Shown: one piece after another, positions 24,366 through 42,603 of the stretch | Position numbering within the stretch: position 1 is the first letter of the stretch | How the letters are laid out: each line of letters starts with the position of its first letter | Source of the DNA: a virus | Taxonomy: Duplodnaviria > Heunggongvirae > Uroviricota > Caudoviricetes | Reading direction: 5' to 3' (one strand) | Virus record (IMG/VR): IMGVR_UViG_2531839180_000006 | Length of the DNA: 47,402 bases | Notes under the pieces: model-generated | Databases searched by the model: none | The model's input: the letters and a program-made list of their open reading frames with translations, nothing else | What the model was told of the DNA's origin: nothing | Made by a program: the position numbers and the translations under genes

Positions 24366-24672
24366 ATCATAACGTCCGGTTTCTTCCATGCCAGAACCGG
24401 ACTCGCTGGCATGATGAAATATGTGTACCCGGTAACCCCGGTGTGCATCGTTTTTGATTATTCCCCCACACTTGTGCAGAAGGAGTTCCCCGTCAGGCTA
24501 CAGTCATAATTAATGCAAGAGTACAGCGACGATACAGCGCACAGAAATAAATCAGGTATCCATTGACTTCACAAAGACGGTGCATAGCATCGACAGGAGT
24601 AATTGCGTAAATTGAACTCTTGGCACACTTTAGCCACCGGCGAATCTTCAGCGGATTATCCTTGGCCGGTTT

Positions 24673-25137
24673 TTATCTGAGGCATTGCTCTCGAATGTAT
24701 AGCTGTGCCCCTTCAAGTTGTTTTTGCATTATTATCAGTCGCGCTCTGAGGGTGAAATAATCCCGTTCAGCGGTGTCTGCCAGTCGGGGGGAGGCTGCAT
24801 TATCCACGCCGGAGGCGGTGGTGGCTTCACGCTCTGACTGACAGACTGCTTTGATGTGCAACCGACGACGACCAGCGGCAACATCATCACGCAGAGCATC
24901 ATTTTCAGCTTTCGCATCAGCTAACTCCTTCGTGTATTTTGCATCGAGCGCAGCAACATCACGCTGACGCATCTGCATGTCAGTAATTGCCGCGTTCGCC
25001 AGCTTCAGTTCTCTGACATTTTTGTCGCGCTGGGCTTTGTAGGTAATGGCGTTATCACGGTAATGATTCAGCCCCAGACTAAGCGCACCACAGGCCACCA
25101 GCAGGGCAATGATGACCACGCACAGTACGCGGTTCAT
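24673..25137 (-). CDS. Rz: Inner-membrane spanin Rz (i-spanin)
   Basis: 154 aa; '[78 protein letters not shown]' matches lambda Rz. Confidence 0.95.
24735..24917 (-). CDS. Rz1: Outer-membrane lipoprotein spanin Rz1 (o-spanin), embedded in the +1 frame of Rz
   Basis: 60 aa '[24 protein letters not shown]...[29 protein letters not shown]' matches lambda Rz1 with lipobox. Confidence 0.95.
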
Positions 25138-25238
25138 TTCACCACCAGCGTATCTGACCGATGAAATAACCGGAGGCCATAATCACAAACACCAGCCAGA
25201 TAAGAATGAACTTCCAGGTGGATAATTTTTCAGCCATC
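25134..25238 (-). CDS. Candidate small hydrophobic peptide (34 aa) translationally coupled to Rz
   Basis: ORF '[34 protein letters not shown]' preceded by GGGAGA SD; its TGA overlaps the Rz ATG (AAATGA). Below the 60-aa cut-off of the ORF track. Confidence 0.4.
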
Positions 25239-25313
25239 ACTCGAATCTCCCGAATCAGTTTGCTAAAATCAAACACACTTTCTCCTTTGACTTTTCCGGA
25301 GTCAGGAAACACA

Positions 25314-25346
25314 AAACCCCGCTTGGTGCCAACAAACGGGGTTTTT
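25314..25346 (-). terminator. Terminator-like hairpin (CCCCG...CGGGG flanked by A/T runs) downstream of the lysozyme gene
   Basis: plus 'aaaaccccgcttggtgccaacaaacggggttttt'; U-rich tract follows on minus strand. Confidence 0.35.
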
Positions 25347-25435
25347 ACTTTTATTCACTTACGTTTCGCCAGTTCGCAGGATTTCATGTTATCCGCCCGC
25401 GTGGCCATGCCTTATTTTTCAGCAAAATATTCTGC

Positions 25436-25969
25436 TTATCTGTAGATACCCCAGCACGCCAGCGCGCTCTCCTGGTCACGACGGGATACCTGACCGTAGC
25501 AGTTGTTTGAACGAATACGGCAGTCTCTGCCACCGTCCTTAATCCACCAGCGAATCGCCTCACACGCTCCCCTGCGATCACCTGCATTAATTCGTTTATA
25601 AAACGTCGACGGGAAACACTTACCGGGACCAATGTTGTACGGACAGAATGACGCGATCCCCGCTTTCTGGGGTTCGCTCAATGGCACTTTGATGTTTTTC
25701 TCCACCCATGCCAGCGCCTTATCACGCTCAATGGCGTTGACCTGGTCGCATTTTTCCTTCGACAGTTTCATACCGGGAAAAACGGGTTTTCCATCCACCA
25801 TCGTGGCCCCCCGACAGATGGTCCAGATGCCGGAACCATCGCGGTATGCCGTTGTGTGGTTACCCTCTTTTTCGTCCAGAAACTGGTCAAGTATCTGAGG
25901 AGCAGACGCGCCTGCAGCAATCAGCGCCAGAACAGCAGCTGACAGGCCGTATTTGATTTTTGCGCTCAT
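25436..25969 (-). CDS. Endolysin: T4-lysozyme-like muramidase with N-terminal signal-anchor-release (SAR) segment
   Basis: 177 aa; N-terminal 'LSAAVLALIAAGASAP' hydrophobic segment; E/D/T triad context ('EGNHTTAYRDGSGIWTICRGAT'); RrrQ/RrrD-like. Confidence 0.85.
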   Translation of the reverse strand: MSAKIKYGLSAAVLALIAAGASAPQILDQFLDEKEGNHTTAYRDGSGIWTICRGATMVDGKPVFPGMKLSKEKCDQVNAIERDKALAWVEKNIKVPLSEPQKAGIASFCPYNIGPGKCFPSTFYKRINAGDRRGACEAIRWWIKDGGRDCRIRSNNCYGQVSRRDQESALACWGIYR

Positions 25970-26024
25970 GGATATTTATCAGGATGCTACCAATGAAAGA
26001 TACCGGAAAGCCAACTGCAAAAAG

Positions 26025-26339
26025 CTAACAACCCGTAATCGAGTTATCAGAACTGTTAATTTTTATGGTATACCGCGCCTCTGAACAGGGGCGCGTTTCT
26101 GGCAACAGCTCGTCCCCTTCACATAACCCGGCAGCAACATCCAGGAAGACCTGTCTGATGCTCCTTCTGGCTGCTGCCTCATAAAACTCCAGCGCGGCAC
26201 CTTCAACACGGTCCAGCGAGATGTCCAGGTCAAAAATTTCACCGTCAAAGCGTTTTTTGTCCCGTAACGCTAAAGTTACCGTAACTTTATTCTCAAAATT
26301 GCGGATCCCTTTCACAATCAGTTCATAGTTTTGAGTCAT
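26025..26339 (-). CDS. Hypothetical protein between holin and endolysin (YdfR/DUF1327-like by position)
   Basis: 104-aa ORF with GGGGAGAG SD; same location as ydfR in the Qin lysis cassette; family from memory. Confidence 0.55.
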   Translation of the reverse strand: MTQNYELIVKGIRNFENKVTVTLALRDKKRFDGEIFDLDISLDRVEGAALEFYEAAARRSIRQVFLDVAAGLCEGDELLPETRPCSEARYTIKINSSDNSITGC

Positions 26340-26343
26340 TGAA

Positions 26344-26559
26344 TTACTCTCCCCGTGCAGCCTTACGACGGTCCTCTCTGATTTTGAAATACAGGTTAGT
26401 CAGATATGTCAGCAGCCCAAACAGCAGACTCCCCAGCACGCCTATTGCCGCCCACTGAGACGGGGAAACCCTGTCCAGCAACTGCAGGAACCAGTAGCCC
26501 GTTCCCACCGCTGACGTGGTGTATGACACACCTGTTGTGATTTTTTCCATCTGGTCCAT
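26344..26559 (-). CDS. Class II holin (S21/pinholin-like, EssQ/EssD family) with dual-start motif MDQMEK
   Basis: '[65 protein letters not shown]' matches lambdoid class II holins; two TMDs; GGAG SD. Confidence 0.9.
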
Positions 26560-26866
26560 ACCCCGTCTCCCGTTATCCGGAAGCTGACAACAATAAAAAA
26601 GCCACCAGTTAACTACTGATGGCTCTGATAACTCATGCAAGCGTCTCAGACGACCCACTGGCACTACCGGTGAGTTTAACGATACCTTCCATTTGACTGA
26701 CTCACTTTTTATGATGATGCCGGTGCATTTATCTCCAGCACCAGACTTTCTGTCTCAACGCCATACGTTGCATTTTTGGTAATATCCGTCAGCGTCAGTG
26801 CATTTAGTCCCACTGCCAGACTGTCTTTTATGGCCTGGAATGCCGGGCCAGTACGATGACGTAGTA

Positions 26867-27650: not shown

Positions 27651-27685
27651 GGAGTTTACTCACATCTGACAAAATCAATATAAAC

Positions 27686-27705
27686 AGCCCCTCCGGAGAG
27701 GGGCT
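27686..27705. terminator. Perfect hairpin AGCCCCTC-CGGA-GAGGGGCT downstream of the 111-aa ORF and of the tRNA cluster; possible bidirectional terminator
   Basis: 8-bp perfect GC-rich stem with tetraloop read directly. Confidence 0.4.
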
Positions 27706-27939
27706 GGAGAGTGGCGCTATGTGCCATTGCATGGTGCCGGGTGCCTCCCGGTGAATTCAGTACCAGCACCTGAATCCGCGATTATCCCATATACCTACTC
27801 GCTGATTGCCCCTCCGCACAGGGGGATTCACCATGCCAGTTTCTTTTAACAAACTCCCCGCAAACCAGACAACAGTCAACCGCCTGAATTGTGAGACATT
27901 TAAAAAAAGCCCGCAAAAGCGAGCCAAGGAAAATAAGTG

Positions 27940-28016
27940 TGGCGCGTTGTACTGGATTCGAACCAGTGACCGATTGCTTAGAAGGCAATTGCTCTGTCCG
28001 GCTGAGCTAACAACGC
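27940..28016 (-). tRNA. argO: tRNA-Arg (anticodon UCU), argO-like
   Basis: Minus strand GCGTTGTTAGCTCAGCCGGACAGAGCAATTGCCTTCTAAGCAATCGGTCACTGGTTCGAATCCAGTACAACGCGCCA folds as a canonical cloverleaf (7-bp acceptor, TTCGAAT T-loop, CCA). Confidence 0.85.
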
Positions 28017-28029
28017 AGGATACAGATAA

Positions 28030-28106
28030 TGGACCGCCTTCGGGGACCCGAACTCCGCGCAACCAGCTTCGAAAGCTGGCGCTCTTTCCTGATGAGCTAA
28101 TGGCGG
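28030..28106 (-). tRNA. argN: tRNA-like, probable tRNA-Arg (anticodon UCG by eye), argN-like; non-canonical pairs, possibly degenerate
   Basis: CCGCCATTAGCTCATCAGGAAAGAGCGCCAGCTTTCGAAGCTGGTTGCGCGGAGTTCGGGTCCCCGAAGGCGGTCCA: cloverleaf possible but A-A mismatch in acceptor stem, A-C mismatch in T-stem, G at position 58. Confidence 0.55.
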
Positions 28107-28113
28107 TATGTGA

Positions 28114-28189
28114 TGGTGGCCCTTGCTGGATTTGAACCAGCGACCTGGCGATTATGAGTCGCTCGCTCTCACCACTGAGCTAAAGGGCC
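28114..28189 (-). tRNA. ileZ: tRNA with anticodon CAU (Ile2/lysidine type, ileZ-like; formally Met/Ile)
   Basis: GGCCCTTTAGCTCAGTGGTGAGAGCGAGCGACTCATAATCGCCAGGTCGCTGGTTCAAATCCAGCAAGGGCCACCA; closely resembles E. coli tRNA-Ile2; perfect acceptor stem, TTCAAAT T-loop. Confidence 0.85.
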
Positions 28190-34443: not shown

Positions 34444-34599
34444 TTACTCTCTAGATTCGTAGTCTACGAAAACAGCAACCTCCGTCTGGCCGGTTCGGAT
34501 TCGTACCTCGCAGAGGTCTTTCCTCGTTACCAGTGCCGTCACTATGACGGTTAAACAGATGACGATAAGGGCGATTAACATCGCCTTTTGCTGCTTCAT
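34444..34599 (-). CDS. hok: Hok-family type I toxin (HokD/RelF-like membrane peptide)
   Basis: 'MKQQKAMLIALIVICLTVIVTALVTRKDLCEVRIRTGQTEVAVF' matches Hok/Gef family; AAGGAG SD; in-frame upstream extension (to 34656) may be mok-like. Confidence 0.85.
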   Translation of the reverse strand: MKQQKAMLIALIVICLTVIVTALVTRKDLCEVRIRTGQTEVAVFVDYESRE

Positions 34600-35025
34600 A
34601 GCCTGCTTCTCCTTGCCTTTCGGCACGTAAGAGGCTAACCTACATTTGTGAGACATAGATTGGGCCTCAGATTAATGTTAAGCGTCTTGCAGGACGCGTA
34701 ATGTTAACTGGGGCTTTTCTCTATCTGCCTTTTGGTGTTCATGCCTGAGACAGATAGCCTCAAGCACCCGCAGCAATTCTACTTAACTCTCCTTTTCCCG
34801 CAAACCGTTTTTATCCTCAACGTAAATTTTACCAATATTGCCTAACACATCTCCCTTGCCCTGACGATGCTTACCTCTTTACACAGACCCAAATTTATGT
34901 ATTATCTTTTACAAACAAGCAGTTAAGAGCTATCGGTGGGTGAGTTCGCCCTGCGGTAGCTTTTCCTTTATGCATTGCATCTATTTATGTTCTAGTATAT
35001 TCCTATATGTTCAAAAGGACTTTTC

Positions 35026-42086: not shown

Positions 42087-42603
42087 AAACACTCCTTTTT
42101 ACTGTGGAAAGCTAAATCATATCACGGTCTATGAAGTAAAAAGTGAATTTCGTGATGCGGTGAATGCGGCTCAGCGCACGCAGAACAGTTAAAAACACAA
42201 GTGTTATGGGTGAATCATCCGGCGTTAATTGTTAACTGGTTAACGTCACCTGGAGGCACCAGGCACCGCATCACAAAGTTCACTTAGGTGATGAAAGGTA
42301 GAGAAAATGTTGAATGTAGCTATTGAAAACCAGAACGGGTGGAATTATAGTGCACCTGCACCTCATAAAACGGGTGCCGGGCGTGGAAACCCGATGTTCA
42401 CTAACGCGCATAATCGCGCTCAGGCGGTTTTTTTATGCGTAATGCACAGCCACATTCAGATTATGGTGGGACGTGCAGGGCAGCCGCAAGGCTGGCCGGG
42501 TTCGTTAGTGACCGGTATTTCCACCCCTGTACGTCTCACCACCCTTATGGTCGTGGAAAACCTTGGTGGTGAGTTAATCAAATTCACTAACGAGGCTGCT
42601 ATC

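Follow-up and report, generated by a model that had tools for sequence, protein, structure and literature searches.

A probable mobile cassette between the endolysin and Rz genes of a tailed phage, with a conserved gene for a small membrane protein and possibly its own antisense RNA

What lies between the endolysin gene R and the i-spanin gene Rz of a tailed phage when these two genes do not abut? The question is raised by the IMG/VR record IMGVR_UViG_2531839180_000006, a stretch of 47,402 nucleotides from a lambdoid E. coli prophage, a member of the Caudoviricetes (in the following called the window), in which R and Rz are both read from the minus strand and are separated by 298 nt. An interpretation made from the letters alone (the sequence-only reading) had put this gap at about 300 bp, had found a hydrophobic open reading frame (ORF) directly before Rz in roughly its final 100 bp, and had remarked that lambda has no gene here. 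These observations hold. The frame is present at 25139-25237, where it occupies the last third of the gap, and in the lambda-type lysis cassettes of the K-12 prophages Qin and DLP12 R overlaps Rz by 4 nt with no gene between them. An overlap of the ORF stop with the Rz start, which was also described, is not found, since the junction reads TGAaATG and leaves a 1-nt spacer between the TGA (25139-25141) and the Rz ATG. The reading that we put forward, and for which the scales seem evenly balanced to us, is that of a mobile cassette at the R/Rz junction, in which a membrane peptide that is read late would be held back by a built-in antisense RNA. The positions of all features are given in Table 1.

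The true extent of the ORF differs from the 34 codons that were first assigned to it. The form starting at the ATG has 32 amino acids (aa), and the reported end of the peptide in WWWK goes back to a mistranslation, as the 32-aa product ends otherwise. The GGGAGA Shine-Dalgarno (SD) sequence is there as described, GGGAG(A) being found 9 nt before ATG 25237. Upstream of this ATG 13 further residues are conserved in E. fergusonii, E. albertii and relatives from Salmonella, and the DNA alignment places a GTG start in front of them. The start codon of the relatives in 12 genera is GTG or TTG, accompanied by an SD and followed by exactly 45 codons. The internal methionine, Met14, is conserved without exception in a set of diverse copies (21/21) and almost always present in distant relatives. 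Judged by these alignments the 45-aa GTG form is the true gene; the shorter product of the ATG would be a second isoform at most, a plausible one, devoid of the charged amphipathic helix described below.

The ORF was also called unannotated. That is correct for phage H-19B and for most of the 53 phage records which carry it, among them Stx1a-, Stx2a- and Stx2c-converting phages, but not for RefSeq, where exactly this 45-aa ORF is annotated in some genomes as WP_000459345.1 'hypothetical protein' ('phage protein'), nor for the PHROGs database, where it corresponds to phrog_6632.

That the ORF is a real gene for a 45-aa membrane protein can, from its pattern of variation, be taken as almost certain. 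The mean ratio of nonsynonymous to synonymous polymorphism (pN/pS) is 0.31 in the frame of the ORF and 0.5-1.9 in the other five frames; in several species stop codons interrupt the antisense frames. Pairwise ratios of nonsynonymous to synonymous substitution rates (dN/dS) amount to about 0.05-0.26 at dS values of 0.5-2. Over the 12 genera the 45 codons show not a single insertion or deletion. Conservation of the peptide in related prophages had been proposed as a check of the sequence-only reading, and its small single-pass peptide stands up to it: the variation over 12 genera is of the coding type, with purifying selection acting on 45 codons, and the structure model contains a single transmembrane (TM) helix. 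A 79-aa ORF on the plus strand (25206-25445) and the other antisense frames were considered as genes as well and rejected due to stops in relatives and pN/pS values of at least 0.5.

One-genome-per-species and protein searches identified the gene in Escherichia, Salmonella, Citrobacter, Trabulsiella, Enterobacter, Klebsiella and Edwardsiella, and further in Yersinia, Izhakiella, Sodalis, Brenneria, Pantoea, Symbiopectobacterium and Providencia. Beyond the Enterobacterales it is carried by an Azoarcus metagenome-assembled genome and by Pseudomonas phages. Among 5426 complete E. coli genomes 2057 match a query with the region, and in 871 the match covers 80% of the query or more. Almost all copies found in the metagenome scan are of the E. 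coli type and add little diversity. Within the window the 30-nt core occurs once, with zero occurrences expected.

The open frame matches phrog_6632 end to end (E=1.4e-29), with residues 13-57 of the 57 aa corresponding to positions 1-45 of the 45 in the profile, and the 45-aa protein obtained no family match in Pfam or NCBIfam. An exhaustive profile search in 1.84 billion representatives returned 57 clusters (counted at 50% identity), all of 31-86 aa and of the same architecture. AlphaFold2, used with the family alignment, models a helix at residues 4-17, a break at 18-19 and a second helix at 20-44, which covers the hydrophobic stretch of 20 residues (mean predicted local distance difference test score 82). 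The predicted product is an inner-membrane peptide of the tail-anchored type, with an amphipathic helix on the cytoplasmic side (xDFSKLIRELRxM..L), the interface motif W-K/R-F (WKF), one TM helix and a tail of three residues, which is often RWW. The TM and C-terminal half splits into at least four subtypes. In the family hydrophobic residues are replaced by hydrophobic ones, and WKF and RWW are conserved.

The peptide gave no match to the holin, antiholin and spanin families of Pfam, NCBIfam and PHROGs, by which the neighbouring S21-type holin was detected. With only three residues (RWW) behind the TM helix and no lipobox it also does not have the features of an i-, o- or u-spanin. Being hydrophobic, 45 aa long (below 60 aa) and by prediction targeted to the membrane, it falls into the size class of the type I toxins.

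The gene does not come alone. According to the alignments it is part of a discrete insert of about 230 bp, which is made up of a hairpin, a leader of about 45 nt and the 45 codons, and we consider it very probable that this unit, hairpin included, is a mobile cassette. The CCCCG...CGGGG hairpin with U-runs had been noticed before and is found with 13 pairs and a 7-nt loop. As far as the compared copies tell, it belongs to the small ORF and not to the endolysin, because the carriers align from the hairpin to the stop codon and are unrelated upstream of the hairpin. In prophage Sp15 of E. coli O157 Sakai the homology with the window runs to the base before the hairpin and is followed by an antirepressor gene (ant) and the ORF ECs_5741. 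The remaining segment of about 90 nt from the endolysin stop to the hairpin (25346-25435, minus strand; GGATAACAnGAAATCCTnCGA) is located outside the cassette; Sakai Sp15 has it too, the Salmonella copy has part of it, and it goes with this endolysin type.

The surroundings of the cassette are diverse. Four types of endolysins are encoded upstream of it (PF00959, GH19, GH108 and Peptidase_M15_4) and i-spanins of three unrelated families downstream (PF03245 Rz, DUF2514 and the LysB-like DUF2570), and the junction almost always consists of the stop codon, 1 nt and an ATG. An identical protein, P0037, stands before PF03245 in one prophage and before DUF2570 in another, with equal spacing. In Yersinia similis, Pantoea, Klebsiella grimontii and the isolated Salmonella phage SEN34 the cassette is situated among baseplate genes, between the spike and a sheath-initiator/gpW-like gene, and the Yersinia similis copy shares 87-89% protein identity with the E. 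coli copy. A P2-like Salmonella prophage has it before an N6/N4 DNA methyltransferase gene, which is followed by Rz. Izhakiella, Sodalis, Brenneria, Symbiopectobacterium, Y. enterocolitica and Azoarcus carry it behind tail or virion genes, and in Pseudomonas phage YMC11/02/R656 it belongs to a group of small ORFs within the tail genes. The orientation is in every copy that of the flanking late genes. By this distribution the cassette is a moron-like mobile element of late operons which prefers the R/Rz junction. Since baseplate and tail operons contain it as well, it is not an obligate or dedicated spanin partner.

Several other genes were noticed in these surroundings. ECs_5741 is an unrelated single-TM ORF of 48 aa (MGWLMISDKLITLVKSLCVLVGISFLVMLVAIFFSTAWRVLTLSGLVG) directly upstream of Rz in Sakai Sp15 (L200, NC_002695.2, 3749-3895, minus strand). 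Relatives of it beginning with MSDK(L/M) follow the small-ORF family in tandem in two further loci (L189, about 380-520, and L198, 3138-3272), and the R/Rz junction thus seems to gather small TM genes. One E. coli locus with the P0037 copy (L185, 977-2117) contains among its lysis genes a pair similar to type II heat-labile enterotoxin (Enterotoxin_a and LT-IIB), just after a GH108 gene and before the M15_4 endolysin. The other (L187, 260-985) encodes a pertussis-S1-like ADP-ribosyltransferase upstream of the holin.

The pairing of the hairpin itself is conserved. Its stem is 95.3% paired across 13 genera, compared to 33-57% in slid controls. Seven of the 13 stem pairs are changed on both sides, and none of 500 shuffles reaches the observed covariation. 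U-runs flank it on both strands in nearly all copies, and a consensus scan, for which a GC-rich stem and a U-tract count, flags it as terminator-like on the minus strand. The density of single-nucleotide polymorphisms within the E. coli copies is biased by the conserved-block anchor and distorted by indels in the loop, and is not used as evidence here. Small RNAs (sRNAs) already known from prophages of enterohaemorrhagic E. coli (EHEC), namely AgvB, AsxR and Pas, were considered as identities of the hairpin and rejected, as they map upstream of the holin or after the esterase and not in the R-Rz gap.

Between hairpin and gene a smaller putative stem-loop could pair a UUUCCU tract with the SD. 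This candidate SD-sequestering helix is 79% paired in 17 copies, as compared to 46-58% in slid controls. Its variants CCUUG/CAAGG, CGUUA/UAACG and CCUG/CAGG display weak covariation. Such pairing of the SD suggests that the first start may be intrinsically damped.

An argument for an antisense RNA comes from the first twelve codons of the gene. In 21 diverse copies Asp3 is always GAT (21/21), Ser5 always AGC out of six possible codons (21/21) and Arg12 always the rare CGA (21/21). Phe4 is TTT in 14/14 with the third base T in all, Lys6 is AAA in 20/21 and Leu11 is TTG in 15/16. The entropy of the third position is zero for codons 3-5 and 12, amounts to 0.28 for codon 6 and reaches 1-2 bits at codons 13, 15, 19 and 23-28; codons 7-8 vary and Arg43 uses five codons. 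The Pseudomonas phage copy retains GAT TTT AGC AAG ... CGA. In the Azoarcus copy Ser5 is replaced by Ile, yet TGATAAAAT is retained. RNA structure was tried as the cause of the frozen codons and is not supported, because RNAalifold finds only the terminator hairpin on both strands and nothing that pairs with these codons.

Read on the opposite strand the frozen codons give TCGCAA/TCGAAT-17 nt-TGnTAA(A/T/G)AT, a motif shared by 22/22 diverse copies, the Azoarcus one included, and also by the copy of the Pseudomonas phage. As a candidate sigma-70 promoter this sequence has the optimal spacer length and an extended -10 element, of which the only variable base is the least important position of the hexamer. 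It is oriented toward the hairpin, and transcription would be expected to begin near 25276, opposite the start codon. On the antisense side the hairpin is followed by UUUUUACUUUUAUU, and this U-tract is strong in every copy, even in those with a poor tract on the sense side (L197, L023 and Azoarcus). The predicted RNA of about 75-77 nt folds as two hairpins with -23.2 kcal/mol (z = -3.0) and would overlap the first start only, not the Met14 start. A strong sense terminator in the middle of a baseplate operon, as in SEN34, is otherwise hard to rationalise, which argues for an antisense role of the hairpin. On these comparative grounds we slightly favour the existence of the cis-antisense RNA.

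A conserved promoter on the sense strand was found inside the cassette neither by the promoter scan nor in the alignments of the copies, in which conservation begins at the hairpin. Another promoter-like sequence of the plus strand, CTGACC-18-CATAAT (25154-25183), which among the plus-strand matches of the scan is nearest to the ORF, was rejected, being located in the variable TM codons and not conserved in the Salmonella copy.

A number of points speak against this reading. Searches of Rfam with the whole window, and permissively with 24600-26100, revealed no family at the locus; the sole match there is a sub-threshold one similar to the rimP leader (24.7 bits with a gathering threshold of 47, E=0.25), which reflects the resemblance of terminators. 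The list of EHEC sRNAs (EcOnc) from Hfq crosslinking and analysis of cDNA (Hfq-CRAC) gave no link to the cassette, EcOnc52 mapping to the 3' end of the esterase gene, although this comparison is uninformative here, as Sp15, the single Sakai prophage inspected at the junction, does not carry the cassette. The -35 element agrees with the consensus in only 3/6 positions. AU-rich codons after a weak GTG could simply be kept for initiation, which leaves TTG-CGA at codons 11-12 unexplained. The asymmetry between G-U and A-C pairs does not favour the antisense strand, the inner stem being if anything better paired on the mRNA strand, and the folding energies of the two strands, summed over 22 copies (-622 vs -602 kcal/mol), assign the structure to neither. 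Having no sense promoter, the cassette also does not constitute a canonical type I toxin-antitoxin addiction module. Finally, any biochemical role given to the peptide is conjecture.

Should the antisense RNA exist, the cassette could work as follows. The peptide would be made only from late transcripts that read through, here those from the Q-antiterminated promoter pR', because the cassette has no sense promoter of its own. In the lysogen it would stay off, as no promoter serves it, the hairpin would stop stray transcripts, and the SD would be sequestered and probably covered by the antisense RNA. The latter would start from the promoter in the first 12 codons, cross the SD and the leader and end at the same bidirectional hairpin, and it would block the translation of the long form or trigger its cleavage. 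As a brake it would prevent synthesis of a membrane-active peptide in the lysogen and in the early phase of the cycle, up to the point at which late transcription outweighs it. After induction the Q-modified polymerase would read through, sense RNA would exceed antisense RNA, and the peptide would be made and inserted with the N-terminus in and the C-terminus out. Ribosomes that end at the UGA might reinitiate at the Rz AUG one base further on, by which the translation of Rz/Rz1 would be coupled to that of the small ORF.

We infer the existence and repressing effect of the antisense RNA, the coupling to Rz and the nature of the peptide as a membrane-perturbing late or lysis accessory factor from the features described above. 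Our best guess is that the peptide assists late infection or lysis by perturbing the membrane or by setting the timing, and that it could do so from any position in a late operon, which would suit its occurrence in lysis cassettes as well as in baseplate and tail regions. A role specifically in lysis is somewhat less likely than not.

Among the alternatives a dedicated lysis accessory survives best, that is a lysis-timing, anti-holin-like or i-spanin partner protein coupled to Rz; the hairpin would then be a late-operon terminator that is read through by the Q-modified polymerase, and there would be no antisense RNA. The regular junction of stop, 1 nt and ATG before i-spanins of three unrelated families and behind four endolysin types is in line with this, and so is the unrelated 48-aa TM ORF ECs_5741 at the same place in Sakai Sp15, with the tandem arrangements in L189 and L198. 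Precedents for small TM proteins of that kind are Mu gp25 'releasin' (PMC9239132) and LambdaSo Lcc6 (10.1101/2024.01.23.576932), which are single-pass small membrane proteins needed besides holin, endolysin and spanin. However, both are unrelated to the small ORF in sequence and topology, Lcc6 consisting of an N-terminal TM helix and a cytoplasmic tail of 43 aa. The possible dual start at Met1 and Met14 recalls the holin/antiholin pairs. On the other hand, the cassette is also found among baseplate genes, in tail regions and before a methyltransferase gene, with the Yersinia copy being 87-89% identical; the peptide is similar to no holin, antiholin or spanin; and this view gives no reason for the freezing of synonymous sites at codons 3-6 and 11-12. 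We regard this explanation as rather unlikely. The lysis-timing or anti-holin-like factor that the sequence-only reading had in mind may apply, but is too narrowly drawn.

The comparison with dual-start holins (lambda S107/S105, S21 71/68) points to likenesses and differences. These, too, are small membrane proteins of lysis cassettes with two in-frame starts, each with an SD, and with charged additional residues at the N-terminus; in the small ORF the two are candidate starts. However, they possess 2-3 TM helices and isoforms that differ by 2-3 residues, whereas the small ORF has one TM helix and its isoforms would differ by 13 residues; it is not homologous to them and also occurs outside lysis cassettes.

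In a second alternative the antisense sRNA is the primary product, which would act in trans on host or phage mRNAs as a moron of the opposite strand, and the ORF would be a secondary passenger or a coding constraint. The predicted promoter, about 75 nt and the terminator follow each other on the plus strand in the canonical order of a moron, and promoter, leader and hairpin comprise the most conserved nucleotides of the cassette, with a diverging TM/C-terminal half. EHEC prophages are moreover rich in short convergent sRNAs at moron sites (PMC4104026). This is opposed by the purifying selection which acts at the protein level over the whole length of the ORF, as well as by the absence of an Hfq-CRAC peak and of an Rfam family at the locus, and we hold such a trans-acting RNA to be improbable.

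A further variant treats the cassette as a promoter-less late-operon toxin/antisense element, whose RNA would mask only the GTG and the first SD. In this way it would set the ratio of the 45-aa to the 32-aa form like a holin/antiholin switch and gate the downstream gene (i-spanin, baseplate or methyltransferase gene) by termination-reinitiation, and it would spread among unrelated phages by precise insertion at start codons. This variant has little probability in our view.

A moron for lysogenic conversion would encode an inner-membrane protein for the benefit of the host, e.g. for superinfection exclusion as HK97 gp15 does. The cassette does encode a small inner-membrane protein, separates two genes that are direct neighbours in related phages, and is widespread in prophages, as the 2057 matching E. 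coli genomes indicate. Against expression in the lysogen stand the missing conserved sense promoter, the terminator that precedes the ORF, the constant co-orientation with late genes and the apparently sequestered SD, which together look as if expression there were actively prevented; a conversion gene is therefore very unlikely. The relation to morons in general (Juhala et al. 2000; HK97 gp15) is closer: they share with the cassette the extra DNA between abutting genes and the horizontal spread among unrelated phages. Their classic order for lysogen expression is promoter, gene and terminator, whereas on the coding strand of the cassette a terminator precedes a gene whose stop abuts the next gene, and the moron order is confined to the predicted antisense unit.

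An open frame that arose by chance in a non-coding spacer, with the hairpin as debris of an old insertion, would fit the shortness of the ORF and its omission from many annotations, but is refuted by the coding signature, the invariant length, the conservation from Enterobacterales to Azoarcus and Pseudomonas phages and the covariation of the hairpin.

Returning to the repressed late-read peptide, its closest analogues are the type I toxin-antitoxin systems with a 5'-overlapping antisense RNA, namely SymE/SymR, TisB/IstR-1, ShoB/OhsC and Zor/Orz. Common features are a hydrophobic single-TM peptide of less than 60 aa, a leader that sequesters the SD, and a short cis-encoded RNA over the SD and start with a constitutive-looking promoter and an intrinsic terminator, the pairing of the SD and the RNA with its promoter and terminator being predictions in our case. 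In contrast to these systems the cassette has no toxin promoter and its gene is co-transcribed in phage late operons, and the peptide has no sequence similarity to any known toxin family. In phage P22 the sar RNA, an antisense RNA of about 69 nt, is transcribed from a promoter in the 5' end of ant and covers the ribosome-binding site of ant. The likeness to the cassette consists in a short phage-borne antisense RNA which begins inside a 5' coding region and lies over a ribosome-binding site within an operon. The target of sar is an antirepressor, whereas here it would be a membrane peptide and the RNA is a prediction; the sequences are not related.

The literature was searched for descriptions of a small ORF at the R/Rz junction or of a type I toxin encoded among lysis genes, and yielded only the analogies of Mu gp25 and Lcc6. 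The protein as such is already catalogued, since phrog_6632 and WP_000459345.1 are the same protein; these entries carry no functional assignment and comprise neither the hairpin nor the cassette boundaries, the antisense promoter or the multiple contexts. No paper and no Rfam family were found on the cassette or on an RNA at this site.

Table 1. Coordinates of the cassette, its candidate elements and the neighbouring lysis genes in the window.
Feature	Position	Strand	Remarks
Hairpin of 13 bp, AAAACCCCGUUUG-loop 7-CAAGCGGGGUUUU, U-runs on both strands, left edge of the cassette	25313..25345		Terminator-like both ways; flagged on the minus strand
Small second stem-loop, UUUCCU tract with SD AGGAGA around an inner GACU/AGUC stem	25280..25309	-	Folds; weak covariation
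SD AGGAG, 5 nt before GTG 25276	25282..25286	-	(A)AGG(G)AG at 5-8 nt in all relatives
Small ORF, 45 aa, GTG start, TGA 25139-25141; conserved gene form	25139..25276	-	Start, SD and length kept in 12 genera
Internal SD-like GGGAG, 9 nt before ATG 25237	25247..25251	-	Read from sequence; conserved in 19/22 copies
32-aa ORF from internal ATG (Met14), possible second isoform	25139..25237	-	Met14 conservation; start chosen by several gene callers
Predicted sigma-70 promoter: TCGAAT 25241-25246, 17-nt spacer, TG 25261-25262, -10 TAAAAT 25264-25269	25241..25269	+	Frozen synonymous sites
Predicted cis-antisense RNA, about 75 nt: 5' anti-start/anti-SD CACUUUCUCCUUU, stem-loop, terminator hairpin, U-tail UUUUUACUUUU	25276..25352	+	Inferred
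S21-type class II holin	26344-26559	-	PF04971
DUF1327/YdfR-family ORF, 104 aa	26025-26339	-	PF07041 E=5e-39; phrog_2735
Lysozyme-type endolysin R with N-terminal hydrophobic segment; outside the cassette, upstream neighbour	25436-25969	-	PF00959 E=2e-24
Rz (i-spanin)	24673-25137	-	PF03245 E=1e-51; phrog_13
Rz1, embedded in Rz	24735-24917	-	

Some other features of the window may be mentioned. The DUF1327/YdfR ORF between holin and endolysin is also present in K-12 Qin (ydfR) and in Shiga toxin (Stx) phages. Two more terminator-like hairpins on the late-gene strand, both consensus matches only, are located upstream of the holin start region (26598-26626, minus strand) and at the 3' end of the DUF1327 ORF (26025-26050, minus strand). 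Upstream of the holin the same strand encodes the sRNA STnc100 (132 bits) together with three tRNAs (27676-28189, minus strand); in the corresponding region of Sakai prophage Sp4 a cluster of three tRNA genes, ileZ-argN-argO, is annotated. A full-length sok antitoxin RNA (34594-34769, minus strand; Rfam RF01794, 120 bits) implies a hok/sok type I locus in the prophage. The Hfq-binding RNA isrK (62 bits) is directly followed by a C4 antisense RNA (80 bits) at 42358-42546 on the plus strand, and this pair looks like an antisense immunity element of the P1/P7 type beside an sRNA.

The cassette sits inside the lysis genes that release phage and toxin, and most phage records leave its ORF unannotated. 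If the peptide affects the timing of lysis, the energisation of the membrane or the expression of the spanins, it would be a fifth player beside the holin-endolysin-spanin set in a large group of phages of medical relevance. An antisense RNA, should it exist, would provide a clear example of a promoter written into synonymous positions of a gene of 45 codons, and the cassette would then be a type I-toxin-like unit without a toxin promoter of its own, which depends on the late transcription of the phage. With its sharp boundaries the cassette also marks mosaic recombination at the starts of genes, and it recurs in the lysis, baseplate and tail operons of Escherichia, Salmonella, Yersinia, Klebsiella, Pantoea, Pseudomonas and Azoarcus phages.

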